DNA of 64,000 nucleotides, taken from the NCBI GenBank assembly GCA_963798915.1, contig CAWCVB010000010.1, forward strand, positions 64,001-128,000. Reading direction: 5' to 3'. This DNA comes from an uncultured Gemmatimonadales bacterium. GTDB lineage: Bacteria; Gemmatimonadota; Gemmatimonadetes; Gemmatimonadales; GWC2-71-9. Within the stretch, counting starts at the first letter, position 1. Each line of letters begins with the position of its first letter. Made by a program: the position numbers and the translations under genes. Under the pieces are notes generated by a model that did no database searches, was not told the origin of the DNA, and was given only the letters and a program-made list of their open reading frames with translations. Shown piece by piece: positions 55,683 to 64,000 of this stretch.

Positions 55683-55958
55683 ATGGCCCAATATCTTACC
55701 CTCCGAATCCTGGTCCAGCCTCGCGCCTCGCGCAGTGAGATCGTGGGTCCCCACGGCGACCATCTCAAGGTGCGACTCGCGGCGCCGCCAGTGGACGGCG
55801 CGGCCAATGAGGAGCTGGTGCGGCTGCTGGCCCGCGAACTGGGAGTCCCCCGCAGTGGGATCGAAATCGTGGGTGGGCTGTCCTCGCGCCGGAAGACGGT
55901 GAGGGTCAGCGGGGCACAACCGGATGCAGTGGAAAGAGCCCTCAGCCGTCCGCGCTGA
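55683..55958 (+). CDS. DUF167 (YggU) protein
   Basis: VQPRASRSEIVG.HGD.LKVRLAAPPVDGAANEEL, SSRRKTV. Confidence 0.92.
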   Translation: MAQYLTLRILVQPRASRSEIVGPHGDHLKVRLAAPPVDGAANEELVRLLARELGVPRSGIEIVGGLSSRRKTVRVSGAQPDAVERALSRPR

Positions 55959-55963
55959 CCGTG

Positions 55964-56045
55964 CTTTCAGCCTTCAGCTTTCAGCCTTCAGCCTTCAGCT
56001 TTCACCCTTCAGCTTTCAGCCTTCAGCTCTCGGCCCTCAGCTCTT
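55964..56045. repeat. Heptamer array (CYTTCAG)x~11
   Basis: Read directly; same unit as the 21141 array; between convergent genes. Confidence 0.85.
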
Positions 56046-56054
56046 CGCTGAAGC

Positions 56055-59012
56055 CTATTCCAGCGCCGCTACCTCCACCCTGATCCGATCCACATCGGCT
56101 CGCAATGAAGGTTCGGGAGTGGCGCGGAGCGCCAGGTAATGGCCGTACGCCTGCCGCGCCTCCGCCTTATTGCCCGTGAGCTTGGCGAGCCGGCCCTCCT
56201 CGCGGAAGAGCGTAGACAGGGCCACCTGAATCCGCTGCGCCCCCGCATCCGCCACCGGCGCGCGGCGCCGGACGGCAGCGAGGGCCTTGTCGTATTCGCC
56301 GCGCCTGGAATAAAGATCCGCCAGTGTCAGATTGCCGAGCGTCACCGCCCATGAATTCCTGAAAGGATCCAGTACACTGGGCGAGTCCAGCTCGGCGATG
56401 AGCCGAGCGGCTTCCGGGCTCCGCCGCGCAACGGCCAGTCGGGCCGGCAGAACCAGCAGGCATACGTCGCCCAGTTCTTCACGTTGCGGCCCTGTCGTCA
56501 GGCGCAGCCGCGCGATGAGCGGTGGAAGCTGATCCCACTGGTTGCGCCCTGCCCGCCAGAGGCCCACCGCACAGATCGCGAGTTGCTCCGCCAGATCGGG
56601 CGGCGTGCGTGCGTCATCCAGATTTTCAATACGCGCGGTGAGGCGAGCTACGGTTTCTGCCGCCAAGGTGGTGTCGCCATCCCAGAACAGTGCGGCGAAG
56701 ACCTGACTGAAATCGTGATAGAGTCCGGTGGCTTCCGCACCGGCGGCCATGCGCGCCACGCCGGCAGCTTCCAGTGGACGGCCACGATTGAGGGCGAGTT
56801 CTTCCCGGCGCTGGTAGGCCCGGACGAGATCGCCGGCAACCCCGGCCCGCCGCTGGAGCTCCGTGGTGGCATCCACCGCGTCCTCAATCCGGATCCCTTC
56901 CAACTGCGCGGCGGAGAGCAGGCGGTTGAGCGTCGCATCGGTCTGATCCGGAATTCTGGCATGGAACGCGGCCAGCTGGAGCGAGTCGCCGAGGGACGCC
57001 GCAATCAGCCAGCGATAGAACTCGGCAAGGTCACCATCAGTGTCCAGCGCCCGATACCGCGCGCCCAGCCGCCGCACAATTGCGGTGTCGCCAAGGCTGG
57101 CCTCGATGTCCAGCAGGTGGCCCAGCGCCGGCACATACGTCGAGTCTATCTCAAGCGCCTTGCGGTAGGACGCCGCTGCCCGGTCCCGCACCCCAGGCAG
57201 GCCGGCCCACGACTGCTGGTTCAGTACCCAGCCCAGCTGGAACCAGATGTCCGGGCGGTCAGGCGCGCGCGCTGCCACCGCATCGCAGATTTCGTAGTCG
57301 GAGATGGAATCTGGCACCGGCGTCGCTGCCAGGCGTCGGTCGAGACATGCCCCGAACTGCCGATCCAACGGAGGCAGGGTTGCCGCGCGTGATAGGAGCC
57401 AATCCGAAATCCGACTTCCCGCGGGGTCCTTCACCATCTCGCTCCCCATGATCAAGCCGACAGCCGCGAGCGTTAGCGAGGAGTCCTGGCTGAGTGCTTC
57501 CTTGTAATGCGCCAGCGCGACGCTGAACCTCCCGCTGGCAAAATCCTGCTCGCCCGCAATGAATGCGCGCGCCGCGGGGAGTGACGCATGCTGGATCATG
57601 GACAATCGCTCGTCAGGCTGACCGGCGAGCACTGCCATCAAGCCGGCTGCAACCCGGTCCGCGAGCGCCAGCAGACTGTCCCGGCTTCCGCTCACATTTG
57701 AAATTCGCGCCAGAACCCTTCCGTCGCTGGCGGCCTCGATCGTCGCCGTCACCGCCAACTGCTGGCCCGAGGTAAGCACCTGCCCGCGCAGCAGGCGCGG
57801 ACTGCCGAGCGCACGGGCGAGGGTGCTCATGTCACGAGCCCCCAGGGTGGCTGGAGTGAGTTTCAATCGGTTGAGCGCGGCCCTCACTGCCGAGGGATCC
57901 ATCGCCCGCGGCCCACCCAGGCCGGTGAAGCGGTCCGCCAGGAGATTCGACAGCGCCGACCCGGCTGAACTGGCGGCGGAATCGTCAGGGTCCGCCGCGG
58001 CGAGTGGAAGGATGGCGACGCGATTCATGTCAAGCGGGAGCCCGCGCGACCGGCGGGCCAGGACCTGCCACCCGATGAGCGTGCCAACCACCAGCAGCAC
58101 CAGCGCTGCCACCCACGGCCAGCGCTTGCGAGACGCAGGCAGTGCCGGGGCCATGAGCGAGGAACGGCTCCAGGCCTGGAATGACTCGCCTCGAAGCACG
58201 CGGGCAAGTTCGCCTGCGTCGGGAAACCGGTCGGCAGGATTCTTGGCCAGTGCCCGGTGCACCGCAGCCTCGATGATTTCCGGCACCGAGTCGCGGACGG
58301 CACGGATACTGGGCACCCGCTCGACGGCATGACGCGCGAAGACCTGTTGCACCGACGCGCCGGTGAACGGTGGCTCGCCCACCAGCATCTCGTAGATGAC
58401 ACATGCGAGACTGTACTGATCGGAGCGCCCATCCAAACGGGTCGAGCTTCCGATCTGCTCGGGGCTCATGTACATCGGCGTACCGACCACGAGTCCGGAC
58501 GACGTCAGCACTGCCTGGTCCTGCTCCAGCGCGTGCGCCAGACCGAAATCCGCCACCAGCGCGTGGGCGCCGCTCAACAGAATGTTGCCGGGCTTGATGT
58601 CCCGGTGCACCACACCCTGATGGCCGGCGTACTCCAGTGCGTCGGCGACTTCCGCGCCAATCCGGAGCGCATCCTCGATGGCTAGCTGTCCTTCGCGCCT
58701 GATCCGGACCGCCAGCGATTCTCCCTCGACGACCGGCATGACATAGTACAACAGGCCATCCGCGTCACCGCTGTCATGCAGTGGCAGGATGTTGGGATGA
58801 TTCAGCCGGGCGGCCACCCGGATTTCGCGCAGAAATCGTTCGTGACCCAGCGAGGCGGCCAGATCGGGTGAGAGAGCCTTGATGGCGACTTCGCGCCCAT
58901 GACGCTCATCCCACGCCCGATACACGACCGCCATGCCGCCGCGTCCCAGCTCCCCCCTGACCGTATACCGACCGGCCAGGGCGGCGCCGAGCCGCGCTTC
59001 GAGTTCACTCAT
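56055..59012 (-). CDS. Hanks-type Ser/Thr kinase with TM segment and C-terminal TPR-like region
   Basis: LGRGGMAVVY, VAIK, HRDIKPGNILL, DFGLA, GTPMYMSPEQ; TM WPWVAALVLLVVGTLIGW. Confidence 0.92.
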   Translation of the reverse strand: MSELEARLGAALAGRYTVRGELGRGGMAVVYRAWDERHGREVAIKALSPDLAASLGHERFLREIRVAARLNHPNILPLHDSGDADGLLYYVMPVVEGESLAVRIRREGQLAIEDALRIGAEVADALEYAGHQGVVHRDIKPGNILLSGAHALVADFGLAHALEQDQAVLTSSGLVVGTPMYMSPEQIGSSTRLDGRSDQYSLACVIYEMLVGEPPFTGASVQQVFARHAVERVPSIRAVRDSVPEIIEAAVHRALAKNPADRFPDAGELARVLRGESFQAWSRSSLMAPALPASRKRWPWVAALVLLVVGTLIGWQVLARRSRGLPLDMNRVAILPLAAADPDDSAASSAGSALSNLLADRFTGLGGPRAMDPSAVRAALNRLKLTPATLGARDMSTLARALGSPRLLRGQVLTSGQQLAVTATIEAASDGRVLARISNVSGSRDSLLALADRVAAGLMAVLAGQPDERLSMIQHASLPAARAFIAGEQDFASGRFSVALAHYKEALSQDSSLTLAAVGLIMGSEMVKDPAGSRISDWLLSRAATLPPLDRQFGACLDRRLAATPVPDSISDYEICDAVAARAPDRPDIWFQLGWVLNQQSWAGLPGVRDRAAASYRKALEIDSTYVPALGHLLDIEASLGDTAIVRRLGARYRALDTDGDLAEFYRWLIAASLGDSLQLAAFHARIPDQTDATLNRLLSAAQLEGIRIEDAVDATTELQRRAGVAGDLVRAYQRREELALNRGRPLEAAGVARMAAGAEATGLYHDFSQVFAALFWDGDTTLAAETVARLTARIENLDDARTPPDLAEQLAICAVGLWRAGRNQWDQLPPLIARLRLTTGPQREELGDVCLLVLPARLAVARRSPEAARLIAELDSPSVLDPFRNSWAVTLGNLTLADLYSRRGEYDKALAAVRRRAPVADAGAQRIQVALSTLFREEGRLAKLTGNKAEARQAYGHYLALRATPEPSLRADVDRIRVEVAALE

Positions 59013-61371
59013 GCGACTGATCTGCCACGATGGGCCAACCCTCGGATTCGAAGAACGGATGGCATGCGCGGCCCGGCCTCTCCAGATCCTGCTCCAGCAG
59101 AGCAACCCCCAACCTTCCCTTGTACAGCGACAAGTGCCCTGCCGCACTCCGCGCAAACGGCTTGGCATCGCGCTCCAACAGCAGGCGAGCGCGGTCCAGC
59201 CAGCGGGCATCGCCGGTCATCCGGTGAAGCGCGAGCAGGGCATAGCTGCGGCCTGCCAGTCCGCAGCACAAGTCGGGAAACCGGTCCGGTGCTTCCCATG
59301 CGCTCCACCCGCACCGTTCGGCCAGAACCGCATATCGGTCATTCCGAGTCAACTGAAAGGCAATATTCCAGAGATGTACCAGCCCGGCCGGCCCGTTGCA
59401 CCACCCCGGAAGATCATGATGACTGCCAGTTCCGGGCACGTGGGGGAACTGGATGCCGCGGCCCCGAGGTTCCGCCAACCGTCCCAGCGTTGCCAGCGCC
59501 CGCGCGATGGCCTGAGAGGGTGCCTGCCGCGCAACCCGACACCAGCGGAGCATCGCGTAGAGCACTCCTCCCCAGCCATGGGCAATGCCGGCGTTGTCCA
59601 ACGGGCCGCCCGCTGGAAAGGACACGAATTCCGCCAGCGTCGCACCCAGCCGGCGCATCAGCTCCTCTCCCAGGGCGCGCAGCAGCACGCGCGATGGAGC
59701 AAGCTCGGCCGGAGCCGCCTCCAGCAGCATCACAGCGCCCAACAGCACGCCCGCAATGCCATGGCCCAGTTCAACCCGCGTCTCGGCGGCAATATCCAGT
59801 GCGCAGAAGCGCTTGATTGCAGCAGCCATCCGTGTGAGCTGGCCAGATGCCTGGGCGAGGTGCGCGTCCACCAGAATCAGGCCAGAACCAGTAAAATATG
59901 GCGTCACGCTGCCGGTGACATCCGCTTCCAGTCCTTGACGGGGACTCAGGAATGCGCCGGAGCCACGGCTTGCCTGCTTTGCGGTTTCGCACCAGCCGGC
60001 CGCCGCCGAGAGCAGTTCCGGCTCGTTGCGCAGGACAGCCAACCGGTACAACCCGAACGCCGTACCGGCCATGCCATGCATCAGCGAGCAGCGCGGCGCC
60101 CCGATCATGCGAGCCCACTCCGGTGGAGAGCGCCGAGCCAATGTGCGCAGCCACGCGTCTGCCCGACTTTGGGACTGGATACGCACCGGCGTGCCAACCG
60201 GCGGAACTGTGCAACTCGCCAACGCATCGGCGAAGTGGCGCACCGAGCGAAATCGATCCGAGGCCTTCTGTGCCAGGGCCCGGCCGAGCACCGCCTCGAG
60301 CCCGGGCCACGGTGCAGCACCGTGGGCGGCGAATGGCAGTGGCCGCGCTCTGGCCAGCGCCTGAAGCATCACCTCGCGGTCCTGGGAGTCTCCCACATGC
60401 GGGGTGCCTGCGGCCATGTGGTACAGGAGCGCTGCAAGCGCAGATTGCTCGCCCACGGCGGAGAGCGGCGGTGGGGAAGAGCCAGCCAGCATGGCTTCGG
60501 CAAACTGGGGATCGGAGTACGGCAGCACCACGCCGCGATCCACCGGCCGTCGTCCCGGCGTCTTGCTGCACCCGAAATCGAGAATCGTAATCCGGCCCTG
60601 AGCGCTCACCAGAAGGTTTCCGGCGTGCACATCCCCGTGCAACACGCCCCTCGCGTGGAGGCGCGCATAGGCGCGCGCGATGGAGACCAGCAGGTGGAAC
60701 AGCGGCGCGCGACCTGCATGACCGGCGCTTCGAAGCTCGCGCGCCCGTACCAATGGAGAGACTCCGCTGCGCCAGCCCATCACCAGAAATGGGCGGCCTT
60801 CGAGAGTGCCGGCAGACCTGAGTGCGGGAGCGCCACGGCCGCCCAGCAGTTCCAGCACATGCTGTTCCTGACGCAGGGCCCGACGCAGCCGGCGCTCGGA
60901 GCCGAGGCGGGCGATCTTCATTGCCACGACCCGCCCGCGGGAATCCCGTGCCTGATAGAGTTCGGAGTCTTCGAGCACCATCACATGGCGGACCACCACA
61001 AATCCGGCAATCCTCTCGCCCTTGTCCAGCGATGGCATGATACGGGAGGCATCGGGCGATCCCGCAGGCACCAGGAAGCGAGCCTCATAGCAATCGCGGA
61101 GCAGCGGGAATGAATCGGTCAGCGCCTGTTGCGGATCGCCATTGCTGCTGTGGGCGATGATCGCATCCGCGATGCGGGTAGGCGTCTGGAAGTGGCGAAG
61201 CAGTTCGGCAGCGTCCCGGCTGACCACTCTCGAAGACGCCCGGACCCGCGCCCGACCCAGCGCAAATCCGCCCTCCACGCGAGGCAGGCGCCGGCGCAGC
61301 CCGTCGGGAAGTTCGGCCAGCGGCGTCAGCAGGACGTCCCCGGGCAGGATCAGTGCGTCAGTGATCGCCAT
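59005..61371 (-). CDS. Kinase-LanC fusion (lanthionine synthetase C-like) with N-terminal RRE-like domain; no lyase domain
   Basis: Kinase VAMK, LHGDVHAGN, ILDFG. LanC GxxG repeats (SLMHGMAG, FTGSG, HGIAG, GIAHGWGG, WCNGPAG, LCCGLAG, LYKGRLG). Confidence 0.85.
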   Translation of the reverse strand: MAITDALILPGDVLLTPLAELPDGLRRRLPRVEGGFALGRARVRASSRVVSRDAAELLRHFQTPTRIADAIIAHSSNGDPQQALTDSFPLLRDCYEARFLVPAGSPDASRIMPSLDKGERIAGFVVVRHVMVLEDSELYQARDSRGRVVAMKIARLGSERRLRRALRQEQHVLELLGGRGAPALRSAGTLEGRPFLVMGWRSGVSPLVRARELRSAGHAGRAPLFHLLVSIARAYARLHARGVLHGDVHAGNLLVSAQGRITILDFGCSKTPGRRPVDRGVVLPYSDPQFAEAMLAGSSPPPLSAVGEQSALAALLYHMAAGTPHVGDSQDREVMLQALARARPLPFAAHGAAPWPGLEAVLGRALAQKASDRFRSVRHFADALASCTVPPVGTPVRIQSQSRADAWLRTLARRSPPEWARMIGAPRCSLMHGMAGTAFGLYRLAVLRNEPELLSAAAGWCETAKQASRGSGAFLSPRQGLEADVTGSVTPYFTGSGLILVDAHLAQASGQLTRMAAAIKRFCALDIAAETRVELGHGIAGVLLGAVMLLEAAPAELAPSRVLLRALGEELMRRLGATLAEFVSFPAGGPLDNAGIAHGWGGVLYAMLRWCRVARQAPSQAIARALATLGRLAEPRGRGIQFPHVPGTGSHHDLPGWCNGPAGLVHLWNIAFQLTRNDRYAVLAERCGWSAWEAPDRFPDLCCGLAGRSYALLALHRMTGDARWLDRARLLLERDAKPFARSAAGHLSLYKGRLGVALLEQDLERPGRACHPFFESEGWPIVADQSHE

Positions 61372-62464
61372 GCTGTCCCATCCCGCCGGCGGTGCCGACC
61401 ACGACCGGGCTCCAGCTTTCAACATCGACAGCATCCAGCGACACGCGATCCATCGCGAATCGCCACGCCGGGACGATGCAGCCGCGGTCTCGAGCGGCCT
61501 GCGCGAGCGCACTCGCGAGGCGCTGGGTGAGCCAGGCGCGCCAGCTCTCGTCGCCAGCCCAGGGCGCTGCGCGGCCGCGGCCTGCCGGATCCACACCCCA
61601 CGATATCAGCGCCGAGTCAAACAACTGTCCGGTGAACGGGACTCCCTGTGCTGCCACGCCGGCCAGATCACGGGAGAGTCTGCGGGCAGCCTGCAGCATG
61701 CCGCGCCGCGAACTGAAGTAGAGCACCAGTTTATCCGGCCGCAGAATGTTGTAGAGATCCCGTCCCACCTTCATCGAGATTGCACCGGCCACACGCGCAG
61801 CTGCGTGCAGCGACGGTCGCACCAGCTCAGGCATCGGACTCAGGTACAGCTTCCAGATCCTGCGGCCCGGACGAGGCAGCGGTGTACGGTCCCATGAGAG
61901 CCATGCGCCACCGGCTTCAGGGTCCGACGCCTGAAGCCGTGACCCGTGCGGCATGTCGCGCAGCAGTTCGCGCCCCAGCGCTTCCGCGTCGGGATACCGC
62001 TCCCGCCAGGCCGGCGTGGCCGGCAGCGTGTTGAACGCGTAGAGCAGCCGTGCCGATGCTGACACGTCCGGCAACTCGAACGCGGCGGTCTGCCGCAACG
62101 CGTCCAGCGAAAGCGTGGCCAGCGCCGAGGAGGGAGCGGGTCCGTCAGCGTTGGGGAAAAAGATCCGGTGTGCCGCGCCTCCGCTCACGTAACGCCGGCC
62201 CGCACGGATTTCGAGGACTCCATCCAGCACCAGCGCCTGAAGTGAGTGAATCGGAATCGAAGGGGGCGCCAGTCGTGGGTGCGCCAACTCGACAAAGAGC
62301 CGGGCGGTCGAGCGGTTCACCACCCGCGGCGCCCGGAAGTCTCCTGCCTCGGGAGTGAGCAGCCCACCGAACGCAGCGTGTGCCGCCTGGCGCACCAGCC
62401 ACGCCGGCATCGGCTCGGGCAAGGCCTCCGGCGCCAACAGGCGGTAACCTGGCGCGGCCCGCAT
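61358..62464 (-). CDS. HopA1-like putative phosphoSer/Thr lyase
   Basis: WKLYLSP, MKVG, RPDKLVLYF, GVPFT, ISWGVDP, ESWR.W...RLA pattern resembling HopA1/LanY-type lyases; sits between precursor and kinase-LanC. Confidence 0.65.
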   Translation of the reverse strand: MRAAPGYRLLAPEALPEPMPAWLVRQAAHAAFGGLLTPEAGDFRAPRVVNRSTARLFVELAHPRLAPPSIPIHSLQALVLDGVLEIRAGRRYVSGGAAHRIFFPNADGPAPSSALATLSLDALRQTAAFELPDVSASARLLYAFNTLPATPAWRERYPDAEALGRELLRDMPHGSRLQASDPEAGGAWLSWDRTPLPRPGRRIWKLYLSPMPELVRPSLHAAARVAGAISMKVGRDLYNILRPDKLVLYFSSRRGMLQAARRLSRDLAGVAAQGVPFTGQLFDSALISWGVDPAGRGRAAPWAGDESWRAWLTQRLASALAQAARDRGCIVPAWRFAMDRVSLDAVDVESWSPVVVGTAGGMGQHGDH

Positions 62465-62510
62465 TTTGGCTGAGTGACAGAATGATTTGGACACAGCGAT
62501 GAACGCGGCA

Positions 62511-62548
62511 CCACCCATCCGGCGCACCGGCGTGCGCCGGATGGGTGG
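62511..62548 (-). terminator. 17-bp perfect hairpin between precursor and lyase genes
   Basis: CCACCCATCCGGCGCAC-cggc-GTGCGCCGGATGGGTGG; no U-tract. Confidence 0.65.
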
Positions 62549-62566
62549 CTGAGCGTCGAGTGGTGG

Positions 62567-62779
62567 TCAGGCCAACGCGGCGTCGAGCTGGAGCCGCAGG
62601 TCCTTGAGACTTTCCGCGGCCAGGCCCTTGGGTTTGGGCTTCGCGGTGGTGTTGGTGCACGCGCCGCACTTGGTGGGCAGCTCGCAGTTATCCGCGCCGG
62701 CTCCGTTCGCCCAGGCCAGTTCGCCATTTTCCATTGCCTGCACTGGCATCATTATGTCCCTGCTCTCGAACCTGCTCAT
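62567..62779 (-). CDS. Putative RiPP (lanthipeptide) precursor peptide, 70 aa
   Basis: GGAGG RBS; CELPTKCGACTNTT Cys/Thr cluster; first gene of the lyase/LanC operon. Confidence 0.8.
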   Translation of the reverse strand: MSRFESRDIMMPVQAMENGELAWANGAGADNCELPTKCGACTNTTAKPKPKGLAAESLKDLRLQLDAALA

Positions 62780-62963
62780 GGTCAGCCTCCGATCGCGTAA
62801 TACTGCCCGGGCCCGCCGAGATGGCTGGTCCGTTCAAGGTCCGTTCTATTGAGAAAGGTGTGCCCCTTGGATATACCGGGCGACTTGAACGCCGTCAATG
62901 CCACCCTTGCCCGCCGGCCAATCCGGCGGTAAGTCACCTGCCGCCAAGCCAAGGGAGCCTGAC

Positions 62964-64000
62964 GTGGCCGACACCGCCTTCGAGGTCCATAGCATCGCCT
63001 TTGCCTATCCCGGCAATCGCGAGGCAATCCCGCTGCGCGCTCCGGCAACCAATCACCTGGTCAGCGAACACCCCGAATGGATCCGGAACGAGCGCTCGGC
63101 TCCCGTGGCATATGTGCGGGGCGCCCGGCCTCACGTTCAGGTGGTTTTCCGGCGCCAGGCGGGGCCAAGGAGGATCACCTGCGTGGTCGGTGCCACGGCG
63201 CGAGGCGCCACCGCAGGGGTGCAGGCCCGCCGTGTCCGGCTGGAGTTTGACCGAAGCGGCCTGTCACGGCCGGTGCGATTCCAGCTCTCGCGCACTTTGC
63301 CGAAGGTGGTCGGGATCCGACGGATCCGCTGGGCCTGGTTCCGGCTGGTAGAGGGGAAGCGCCTTCCCGCCGGCGGCTCAGCACATGAGATCTGCCTTGC
63401 GTGGAGGCGGCCACGACCGCCAGCCGACTGGGCCGGCCCCGATTCGTTTCCCCGCAGCCAACCGTGGGTCTATGTGCCACTCATGCAGTGGACCTGCGCC
63501 TGGGCCGCGGGACGGAATGATCCCAAGGCCATCTGCGACACCATCCTGCGCAAGCTCCCGGCTTCCGGCCTGCGCTACGCTCGGCCAGCATGGGACGTTC
63601 GGACCATGCTCACGGCGGGGGGCGGGTACTGTGGTGGCTGGTATCGCATGTTCCAGGCAATGGCCGGAGCCCAGGGTGTGGAGGTCAAGCGCCGTGCCTT
63701 CATGGTCCACTGGCAGAATGAGAGCCGGCAGCGGGCCCGATGGTGCGCCATCGTCGTGCAGCACGCAGGGATCAACCGCGACGCGGTGGTGGAGGCGCCA
63801 AGCACCTTCCATGACGTCCGCCAGCGGCCGGTGCGCGGCGCACCGGTGCGCGTCACCACGCGGGCGCGGTACCGCTTCTGGGGTGCGCCAGGCAAGGTGA
63901 ACGACGGCCACTGCCTCAATTTCCTTCGGTACAAGGGCGCCTGGCACCTGTATGATGCCTGTTTCCTCTCGGAGTCGGTCCGCCTGCCCGGCTTCTCCTT
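62964..64000 (+). CDS. Hypothetical protein with transglutaminase/papain-like Cys-His-Asp pattern (partial)
   Basis: AAGGGAG RBS, GTG 62964, open to window end; GGYCGGW...DGHCLNF...LYDAC; not in ORF track. Confidence 0.6.
   Translation, partial: MADTAFEVHSIAFAYPGNREAIPLRAPATNHLVSEHPEWIRNERSAPVAYVRGARPHVQVVFRRQAGPRRITCVVGATARGATAGVQARRVRLEFDRSGLSRPVRFQLSRTLPKVVGIRRIRWAWFRLVEGKRLPAGGSAHEICLAWRRPRPPADWAGPDSFPRSQPWVYVPLMQWTCAWAAGRNDPKAICDTILRKLPASGLRYARPAWDVRTMLTAGGGYCGGWYRMFQAMAGAQGVEVKRRAFMVHWQNESRQRARWCAIVVQHAGINRDAVVEAPSTFHDVRQRPVRGAPVRVTTRARYRFWGAPGKVNDGHCLNFLRYKGAWHLYDACFLSESVRLPGFS

Follow-up and report, generated by a model that had tools for sequence, protein, structure and literature searches.

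This report concerns a three-gene cassette in a 64,000-nt stretch of DNA from an uncultured Gemmatimonadales bacterium (contig CAWCVB010000010.1), which is called the window throughout and to which all coordinates refer. The window has a G+C content of approximately 65%, and four co-directional genes on its minus strand encode, in order, proteins of 70, 368, 788, and 985 amino acids (aa) (Table 1). A first-pass annotation of this DNA had proposed that the first three form a split lanthipeptide locus, with a Cys- and Thr-containing precursor peptide, a stand-alone lyase, and a fusion of a kinase with a LanC cyclase. Indeed, all three open reading frames (ORFs) lie on the minus strand at the positions it had given, and the two enzyme genes that it had described as overlapping share 14 nt (61358-61371). 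Every motif it had listed (WKLYLSP, RPDKLVLYF, GVPFT, SWGVDP, ESWR, HGDVHAGN, DFG, GIAHG, WCNG, and CCG) occurs in the translations, and most of the residues proved to be invariant among homologs. Beyond that annotation, we found a domain resembling the recognition element (RRE) of peptides that are made by the ribosome and modified after translation (RiPPs), a Cys-Cys-Cys zinc site, a hairpin, the 985-aa kinase-TPR gene, and a conserved C-terminal helix in the peptide.

Table 1. Positions of the cassette genes, their domains, and adjoining features in the window
Feature	Position	Strand	Length or basis
Precursor peptide gene	62567-62779	-	70 aa; ORF and translation
GC-rich hairpin	62511-62548	-	Between peptide stop and lyase start
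Stand-alone phosphoSer/Thr lyase candidate	61358-62464	-	368 aa; ATG at 62464, stop at 61358
Kinase-LanC fusion gene	59005-61371	-	788 aa; ATG at 61371, stop at 59005
RRE-like domain, fusion protein residues 1-125	60997-61371	-	Predicted fold
Hanks-type Ser/Thr kinase domain, residues ~126-410	60142-60996	-	Pfam and invariant residues
LanC-type cyclase domain, residues ~428-788	59005-60090	-	Pfam LANC_like and invariant residues
Ser/Thr kinase-TPR gene	56055-59012	-	985 aa; possible fourth operon gene; start deduced from translations
Divergent gene without family assignment	62898-63998	+	Cut by window end

The longest ORFs of the lyase and fusion genes begin further upstream than the starts listed, at 62527 and 61596, respectively. 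We preferred the shorter starts because homologs align only from there; the longer lyase start would also fall within the hairpin. The 14-nt overlap of the two enzyme genes is identical in the closest relatives. An 8-nt overlap, with the ATG of the kinase-TPR gene over the fusion stop, was deduced from the translations. A scan of positions 55900 to 63000 for sigma-70 promoters and intrinsic terminators was not informative, as it returned no promoter-like site and a single terminator-like site inside the fusion gene, fewer sites than in shuffled sequences.

The 70-aa peptide begins with a leader motif, FESRDIMMPV, continues into a Cys/Thr core, C-E-L-P-T-K-C-G-A-C-T-N-T-T, and ends in an amphipathic helix, LKDLRLQLDAAL, with a short follower of approximately 14 residues. 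The sequence GGAGG stands 6 nt ahead of its ATG. The peptide is 69% and 66% identical to those of the two closest genome relatives (L001 and L003, respectively), the two ends being conserved and the middle variable. Neither Pfam nor NCBIfam gave a usable match to the peptide. Among the 755 ORFs of at least 25 aa in the window, it alone fits the three-part pattern of related precursors described below, and it is likewise the sole window match (E = 0.0013) of a follower hidden Markov model (HMM) that was built from acidobacterial precursors without the window sequence. The window peptide is a minimal member of the precursor family, with one core and a short follower.

The GC-rich hairpin behind the peptide gene has a perfect stem of 17 to 18 bp and a fold energy of -49.3 kcal/mol (z = -7.1), and none of 200 shuffled sequences was as stable. 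No T run follows it. A hairpin is present at the same position in both of the closest relatives, where its loop differs and its stem is shorter. We regard the structure as a candidate attenuator or transcript-stabilizing element that would set the ratio of precursor to enzyme mRNA; it probably raises the former relative to the latter.

The lyase candidate and the kinase-LanC fusion protein

The 368-aa protein consists of an N-terminal alpha/beta region (residues ~1-180) followed by a predicted HopA1/OspF-type lyase core (residues ~185-345). None of the Pfam, NCBIfam, or PADLOC models matched it, and its relatives are annotated only as hypothetical proteins. The Pfam HopA1 family (PF17914) gave no match to the window protein even at E values up to 10, and when 39 family members were scanned singly, 8 gave weak HopA1 matches and 4 gave weak RamC_N matches, all below cutoff and in the C-terminal half. 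A word-indexed search returned 152 relatives at an E value of 0.001 or less. An exhaustive search at the same threshold returned 1613 clusters at 50% identity, 1156 of them at 1e-30 or less, and the best-scoring 150 of the 1613 clusters have lengths of 358 to 474 aa. Longer, fused forms of the lyase did not turn up in a search aimed at them, which is weak evidence.

The predicted structure of the lyase candidate (pLDDT 89.4, pTM 0.89) has the phosphothreonine-lyase fold. The best Foldseek matches were HopA1 (4rsx, E = 8.8e-7), LxmY from the class V LxmKY complex (9dk2_B, E = 1e-6, 20% identity over 190 columns), and the lyase domain of class IV CuvL (8cav_B, E = 1.1e-5, 25% identity over 146 columns), followed by weaker matches to SpvC, VirA, and OspF and to the class III enzymes ThurKC, SalKC, and PneKC. 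All matches down to rank 28, with E values up to 0.06, belong to HopA1, LxmY, SpvC/VirA, OspF, or class III and IV lanthipeptide synthetases. The phosphothreonine-lyase fold that the first-pass annotation had anticipated was thus found by the structure search, whereas its description of the lyase as "class V-type" stands in part: the fold is LxmY-like, but the protein resembles the CuvL lyase domain about as much.

An alignment of 39 family members contains 28 invariant positions, including K205, Y207, S209, K232, R242, D244, and Y249. Lyases of the OspF/HopA1/LanL superfamily use a catalytic Lys as base, a Tyr, and Lys or Arg residues that hold the phosphate and the enolate; K205, K232, R242, and Y249 are candidates for these roles by spacing. 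The spacing of K232, R242, and Y249 equals that of K219, R229, and Y236 in CaoY. In CaoY, K219 is essential and R229 has been mutated, R229 and Y236 correspond to R148 and Y158 of SpvC, and LanY proteins carry an Arg where OspF and LanL carry Lys104 (PMC9486802). By spacing only, K205 appears to occupy the position of Lys104 in OspF and LanL and of Arg187 in CaoY. The 368-aa protein belongs to a new sequence family whose predicted fold is that of phosphothreonine lyases. Like LanY it is a stand-alone protein, and in the model its core is about equally close to the LanL lyase domain and to LanY.

The 788-aa protein gave Pfam matches to LANC_like (7.3e-21), Pkinase (4.8e-9), and APH (1.1e-10), the last spanning only 31 residues of the catalytic loop. 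Its best NCBIfam match was the LanL model NF038150, with 132.6 bits against a cutoff of 650, over model positions 191 to 798 of 851; the LanKC model reached 73.8 bits against a cutoff of 575, over the kinase only. A profile of 29 homologs aligned, over query residues 126 to 745, to residues 216 to 807 of the CuvL chain (E = 1.9e-19 for the whole of CuvL). The best solved relatives of the kinase part by profile were StkP, PknE, and PknB, at approximately 1e-31. The view of the first-pass annotation that a class IV-like Hanks kinase is joined here to a zinc-type LanC domain was borne out by these matches, LanL being the nearest relative. Public records name the homologs "lanthionine synthetase LanC family protein" or "serine/threonine-protein kinase."

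Catalytic residues of both domains are strictly conserved. K152, E169, H245, D247, N252, and D265 of the kinase and H598, W657, C658, C702, C703, and G704 of the LanC domain are invariant in all 29 sequences. The predicted zinc ligands are Cys658, Cys702, and Cys703, the latter two within the CCG motif, and His598 is present in addition. Because C702-C703-G704 is invariant, we read the site as Cys-Cys-Cys and not as the Cys-Cys-His of LanC, LanL, and LanCL proteins. A CCG motif has been described as a mark of ProcM-like enzymes and has been linked to their promiscuity (PMC8524650; PMC11251773, section 3.2).

Residues 1 to 125 of the fusion protein are conserved in homologs, and do not align with the CuvL lyase domain. 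Pfam and NCBIfam scans of this region gave nothing usable, and the same was true of a protein atlas search. The model (pLDDT 84.6) contains four short strands followed by three helices, an arrangement that agrees with the winged-helix RRE fold of a three-stranded sheet and three helices. Eight of the first 10 Foldseek matches were leader-binding domains of RiPP enzymes or proteins carrying one, the RRE-type matches being TigE, PqqD, TbiB1 with leader, MccB, a lasso-peptide B1 protein with leader, and TglHI, and further down the list stood ThcOx and a LynD-type heterocyclase. From the predicted fold, we read this region as an RRE standing in place of the LanL lyase domain.

Conservation of the cassette and its precursors

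A scan of one genome per species yielded 260 loci with a relative of the lyase, and 80 of the 260 were fetched and analyzed. By taxon labels assigned by hand, these comprise 33 loci from Terriglobia-type Acidobacteriota, 22 from Thermoanaerobaculia, 9 from other Acidobacteriota, 8 from Gemmatimonadota, 2 each from Bacillus, Alphaproteobacteria, and Actinomycetota, and 1 each from Chloroflexota and WPS-2. In all 80, the fusion gene comes immediately after the lyase gene, as seen by ORF search in 75 loci and by tblastn in the other 5, where the contigs end 758 to 2288 nt past the lyase gene and the start of the fusion gene is present. The distance from lyase stop to fusion start could be measured in 74 loci; the genes overlap in 39, are 0 to 30 nt apart in 34, and are separated by 100 nt in 1. 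This arrangement is far beyond chance.

The N-terminal domain, kinase, and LanC domain are encoded in one ORF in 70 of the 75 loci found by ORF search. In the remaining five (L031, L032, L047, L057, and L071), the kinase and LanC parts lie in adjacent ORFs, in several fragments in the case of L071, and a frameshift, an assembly error, or a real split is possible. One of the five, L032, comes from a cultured strain, Amaricoccus macauensis DSM 101730.

Clustering of all locus ORFs of at least 110 aa showed which other families accompany the pair. The only families present in more than 10 of the 80 loci were the lyase, the fusion protein (which clustered together with other kinases), the precursors, and antisense shadows of these; no exporter, protease, or flavoprotein family was found above that count in the ORF clustering.

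In nearly every locus, a precursor built like the window peptide is encoded upstream of the lyase gene. It starts with an N-terminal motif, of the type F-x-V-[KR]-D-L-M-[IV]-x-V or M-P-K-[IV]-[KR]-D-L-G-[IV]. Next comes a core that varies in sequence and is rich in Cys, Ser, and Thr, and at the C terminus stands a conserved amphipathic helix, L-x-x-L-[KR]-x-Q-L-x-x-x-L, which in many Acidobacteriota is extended to a coiled coil of 60 to 70 residues. The follower HMM finds a precursor in 53 loci and the three-part pattern in 52, with the ORF ending 24 to 872 nt before the lyase gene; as a control of specificity, no more than 55 of the 10852 locus ORFs fit the pattern. By one or the other means a precursor was found in 63 loci, and by eye it was recognized in 15 of the 17 that lie outside the automated criteria, among them L026, whose precursor has no cysteine, and L002, which is cut by the contig start. 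Of the last two, L028 is cut by the contig start, and no precursor was seen in L037. The Cys/Thr peptide at homologous loci, the lack of which the first-pass annotation had named as a refutation, was recognized at nearly all of the loci analyzed.

Long precursors of approximately 180 to 290 aa carry three to eight tandem core units between leader and coiled coil. Each unit has approximately 17 to 25 residues and contains C-[TS]-D-C-[TS] and S-[IF]-C-G, as in C-T-D-C-T-T-Q-A-F-S-I-C-G-T. Examples are L012:6132-6980, L013:6021-6881, L016:2120-2905, L020:6222-6977, L038:3623-4726, and L050:6141-6977, and there are others. Pfam scans of eight long precursors gave only coiled-coil-like noise below threshold. 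The combination of tandem cores and a coiled coil is unusual for lanthipeptide precursors. The ProcM-like CCG site of the fusion protein agrees with the highly variable and repeated cores in this family.

Comparison with known systems and proposed chemistry

Lanthipeptide classes are defined by how dehydration and cyclization are built into the enzymes, and the cassette mixes parts that are otherwise kept apart: a free lyase as in class V, a kinase-LanC protein as in class IV, a zinc site as in ProcM, and an RRE-like domain of the leader-binding kind known from other RiPP families. As in the class IV LanL enzymes (VenL, SgbL, and CuvL), a Hanks-type Ser/Thr kinase precedes a zinc-type LanC domain in one chain, the central kinase has intact catalytic residues, and the lyase core is 24 to 25% identical to the CuvL lyase domain over approximately 150 aligned columns. 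Unlike LanL, however, the fusion protein has no N-terminal OspF-like lyase domain, since positions 1 to 190 of the LanL model are unmatched and an RRE-like domain is found there. Its lyase partner, 368 aa long, is encoded separately and comes from a different sequence family, the zinc ligands are Cys-Cys-Cys rather than Cys-Cys-His, and the NF038150 score is far under the cutoff.

A stand-alone lyase encoded beside its kinase, here of predicted HopA1-type fold and below the Pfam HopA1 cutoff, is also seen in the class V LanK/LanY pairs (LxmKY and CaoKY) and in the related thioamitide TvaC/TvaD pairs. With CaoY, the lyase shares the Lys-Arg-Tyr spacing but apparently has Lys in place of Arg187, as OspF and LanL do. 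The kinase is Hanks-type and fused to LanC here, whereas LanK is a free protein of the aminoglycoside phosphotransferase (APH) type. A LanC domain is present, whereas class V systems cyclize through LanX or spontaneously, often with a LanD for AviCys; no LanD flavoprotein was found in the 14 kb downstream or as a recurrent neighbor. Class V is described as having a separate APH-type kinase and no LanC domain (PMC10604976; PMC11186320), and the heterodimers formed by LxmK/LxmY and CaoK/CaoY are a precedent for a separate kinase-lyase pair (PMC12141560; PMC9486802).

Other systems share single features with the cassette. The dehydratase of LanM enzymes has a lipid-kinase-like domain. ProcM-type class II enzymes, the "CCG" group, have the invariant CCG and three cysteine zinc ligands in common with the fusion protein, but their dehydratase is entirely different from the kinase and separate lyase found here; their CCG motif has been linked to the modification of many different core peptides (PMC8524650). 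The kinase-cyclase backbone recurs in class III LanKC, from which the cassette differs in its invariant zinc-ligand cysteines and in having no fused lyase; class III cyclase domains are described as lacking zinc ligands in the source consulted (PMC7268733). The same backbone is found, comparing by description only, in class VI synthetases, which have a "truncated lyase domain." Class VI has been reported for streptococcal enzymes (PMC12328550). The fold of fusion residues 1 to 125 resembles the RRE of enzymes such as PqqD, lasso-peptide B1, MccB, TglHI, and LynD. Class I LanB dehydratases are known to contain RREs, and to our knowledge such elements have not been described for kinase-type lanthipeptide synthetases. 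Finally, of all solved structures, eukaryotic LanCL1 and LanCL2 match the LanC domain best in sequence, and they differ from it in being stand-alone proteins with a Cys-Cys-His site, as seen in the alignment.

The cassette lacks defining features of each of classes III, IV, and V, though it is similar in outline to all three, and the conclusion of the first-pass annotation that it fits no standard class holds. A full-text literature search, with subscription-only papers and supplements outside its scope, gave no description of a HopA1-like lyase adjoining a kinase-LanC fusion. The nearest statements concern clusters with a stand-alone kinase and lyase, in archaeal BLES03 (PMC4159009), and an "L-CCC" synthetase combination with eight predicted peptides in table 1 of a paper whose section 3.2 treats it without using that name (PMC11251773). 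What appears to be new, within lanthipeptide-type RiPPs, is the synthetase architecture and the precursor design.

In classes III to V, a kinase phosphorylates Ser/Thr, a lyase of the OspF or HopA1 type removes the phosphate by elimination, and Cys is added at a zinc site of the LanC type (PMC10604976; PMC9486802; PMC12141560). The analysis shows how the genes are ordered, which domains and predicted folds they encode, which residues are conserved, and how far the synteny extends, and from these we infer the enzymatic steps. We consider it probable that the three genes form a unit that modifies a ribosomal peptide in the manner of lanthipeptides, its dehydratase being divided between two proteins; chemistry, product, and role are part of that proposal. 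Judging from its fold, the RRE-like domain would bind the leader motif at the N terminus of the peptide, and the Hanks-type kinase, whose catalytic residues are intact, would phosphorylate Thr and Ser in the core. The 368-aa lyase, which probably binds the kinase in the way that LxmY docks on LxmK, would then beta-eliminate the phosphate to give dehydrobutyrine or dehydroalanine, a step proposed because of its predicted fold and invariant Lys, Arg, and Tyr residues. The LanC domain, with its three-cysteine zinc site, would add core cysteines to form (methyl)lanthionine rings. The peptide has two conserved ends, and the enzymes offer two candidate modules for docking, namely the RRE-like domain and the first ~180 residues of the lyase, which suggests bipartite precursor recognition. 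The C-terminal helix of the peptide is a candidate for a second docking element or an oligomerization element.

Several observations weigh against this proposal. The best HopA1 score in the lyase family is 19.8 bits against a gathering threshold of 22.7 bits, which none of the 39 members reaches, so that the "HopA1-like" lyase of the first-pass annotation is borne out by the predicted fold and not by the Pfam family score. The lyase family profile had no match among the sequences of solved structures at E values up to 1; at values up to 10 only two chance-level matches appeared, a GGDEF protein and AMBRA1. The general acid of SpvC, His106, has no obvious counterpart; a Tyr, Y207, stands two residues past K205, a correspondence drawn from spacing only. 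The RRE matches are modest, with E values of 3.2e-3 to 0.1 and query TM-scores of 0.41 to 0.57 over the first 10, and Pfam RRE models did not match the fusion N terminus. The LanC domain is closer in sequence to LanCL1/2 than to bacterial lanthipeptide cyclases, among solved structures. A precursor-like ORF (L026:2813-3067) with leader motif and follower helix has no cysteine and a middle of Pro-Asn repeats, and the precursors of L049 (read by eye) and L041 have one cysteine and two core cysteines, respectively. Precursors that reach or exceed 280 aa and include a coiled coil of 60 to 70 residues are unlike classical lantibiotics, and no protease or exporter is conserved with the cassette among the 80 loci.

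These last points bear on the nature of the product. A possible reading, which we hold to be the less likely one, is that no secreted lantibiotic is made and that the product is a thioether-stapled small protein that keeps its coiled coil and has a structural or signaling role within the cell or the envelope, perhaps together with neighboring Ser/Thr kinases. It would account for loci in which only lyase, fusion protein, precursors, and further kinases recur, with no exporter or protease family in more than 10 of the 80, and for precursors with up to eight tandem cores. A further Ser/Thr kinase of at least 400 aa lies within 7 kb in 32 of the 80 loci by raw count; in Thermoanaerobaculia it is usually just upstream in the same orientation, and in the window its start overlaps the fusion stop. 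Phyla of the Acidobacteriota and Gemmatimonadota type are rich in Ser/Thr kinases, however, so the adjacency may be partly chance and may reflect either a functional link or kinase-rich genomes. The window peptide is also small, with its short follower, and lanthipeptide proteases and exporters are often encoded elsewhere (PMC8960859).

The LanC domain raises a different question. LanCL1 and LanCL2 add glutathione to proteins, and if the domain acted likewise, glutathione or another small thiol would be added to the dehydroamino acids produced by kinase and lyase, and no intramolecular rings would form. The sequence matches of the LanC part to LanCL2 and LanCL1 (E = 2.6e-34 to 3.9e-33, compared with 1.9e-19 for the whole of CuvL) point in that direction, as do the Cys-free and single-Cys precursors of L026 and L049, but this ranking is one of whole-sequence scores of proteins differing in length and is not a phylogeny. 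Nearly all recognized precursors have several cysteines interleaved with Ser/Thr, and the invariant CCG is linked to promiscuous lanthionine cyclization in ProcM-type enzymes (PMC8524650); we judge small-thiol addition improbable. Still harder to sustain is the idea of an ordinary LanL gene broken by a frameshift or assembly error, or of an ordinary class V cluster. The kinase-LanC part does score best against the LanL model, the lyase does have a LanY-type fold, and pipelines that look for LANC_like with Pkinase on one protein would call the locus class III or IV (PMC7268733). Nevertheless, all 80 loci, which come from several phyla, have lyase and fusion protein in two genes, and the lyase is a family of its own of 1613 clusters, the best 150 of them of similar length and, on weak evidence, with no longer fused form. 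The unmatched first 190 positions of the LanL model and the RRE-like N terminus argue against a broken LanL, and the separate APH-type kinase and absence of LanC reported for class V (PMC10604976; PMC11186320) argue against a class V cluster. We give this explanation very little weight.

The cassette is no rarity, as its lyase family counts 1613 clusters at 50% identity and occurs in 260 species-level genomes, mostly Acidobacteriota and Gemmatimonadota, abundant soil phyla whose peptide chemistry has hardly been explored. Pipelines of the kind just mentioned would file such clusters as class III or IV and overlook both the gene for the lyase and the long precursors. Should the chemistry be confirmed, peptide engineering would gain an interesting system that is compact, needs two enzymes, and may tolerate very varied and repeated cores. 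It also raises the question of what large multi-ring peptides with a coiled-coil tail are for. At its most far-reaching, and with slightly more reserve than for the stapled protein considered above, the interpretation could be that the cassette represents a further, undescribed lanthionine-forming class. That class would be defined by a fusion of the RRE-kinase-LanC(CCC) type together with a stand-alone lyase of a new family, both acting on natural leader-core-follower substrates with up to eight tandem cores. Its products would be multi-ring stapled proteins with a coiled-coil tail, having a structural or signaling role linked to Ser/Thr kinases in Acidobacteriota and Gemmatimonadota, and would not be secreted antibiotics.

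Neighboring genes

The 985-aa product of the possible fourth operon gene matches Pkinase (3.5e-47) and has weak TPR matches in its long C-terminal region. An ortholog lies directly downstream of the cassette in the same orientation in five of the eight Gemmatimonadota loci (L001, L003, L004, L025, and L055), and the C-terminal region matches those orthologs with E values of 1e-77 to 1e-235. Beyond this gene, 14 kb of sequence contains housekeeping genes and MFS, ABC, MgtE, and DcuC transporters of ordinary types. The statement of the first-pass annotation that no LanD, transporter, or LanP is nearby was upheld for these 14 kb, in which no LanD or other flavoprotein, dedicated transporter, or LanP was found; upstream, 1.2 kb is in view. 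None is recurrent in the 80 loci.

The divergent gene upstream of the peptide, which has no Pfam match, has homologs of approximately 430 to 490 aa at the same position in four Gemmatimonadota loci (L001:5157-6503, L003:2497-3789, L022:5273-6580, and L025:5048-6514). Possibly it serves as an accessory gene to the cassette as found in Gemmatimonadota. A protein atlas search gave weak leads to transglutaminase-core families, at 0.79 to 0.80 and below the usable level; such an identity, if real, would suit a leader protease.

An anti-phage defense reading of the locus was dropped. PADLOC gave only generic kinase matches (PD-T4-6 and mad6) for the two kinases, while lyase and peptide had no match. 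A tandem heptanucleotide repeat, TTCAGCC, occupies positions 55966 to 56046 with 11.4 copies and 79% matches, and sits between the convergent ends of a YggU-like gene (55683-55958) and the kinase-TPR gene, whose stop is at 56055.

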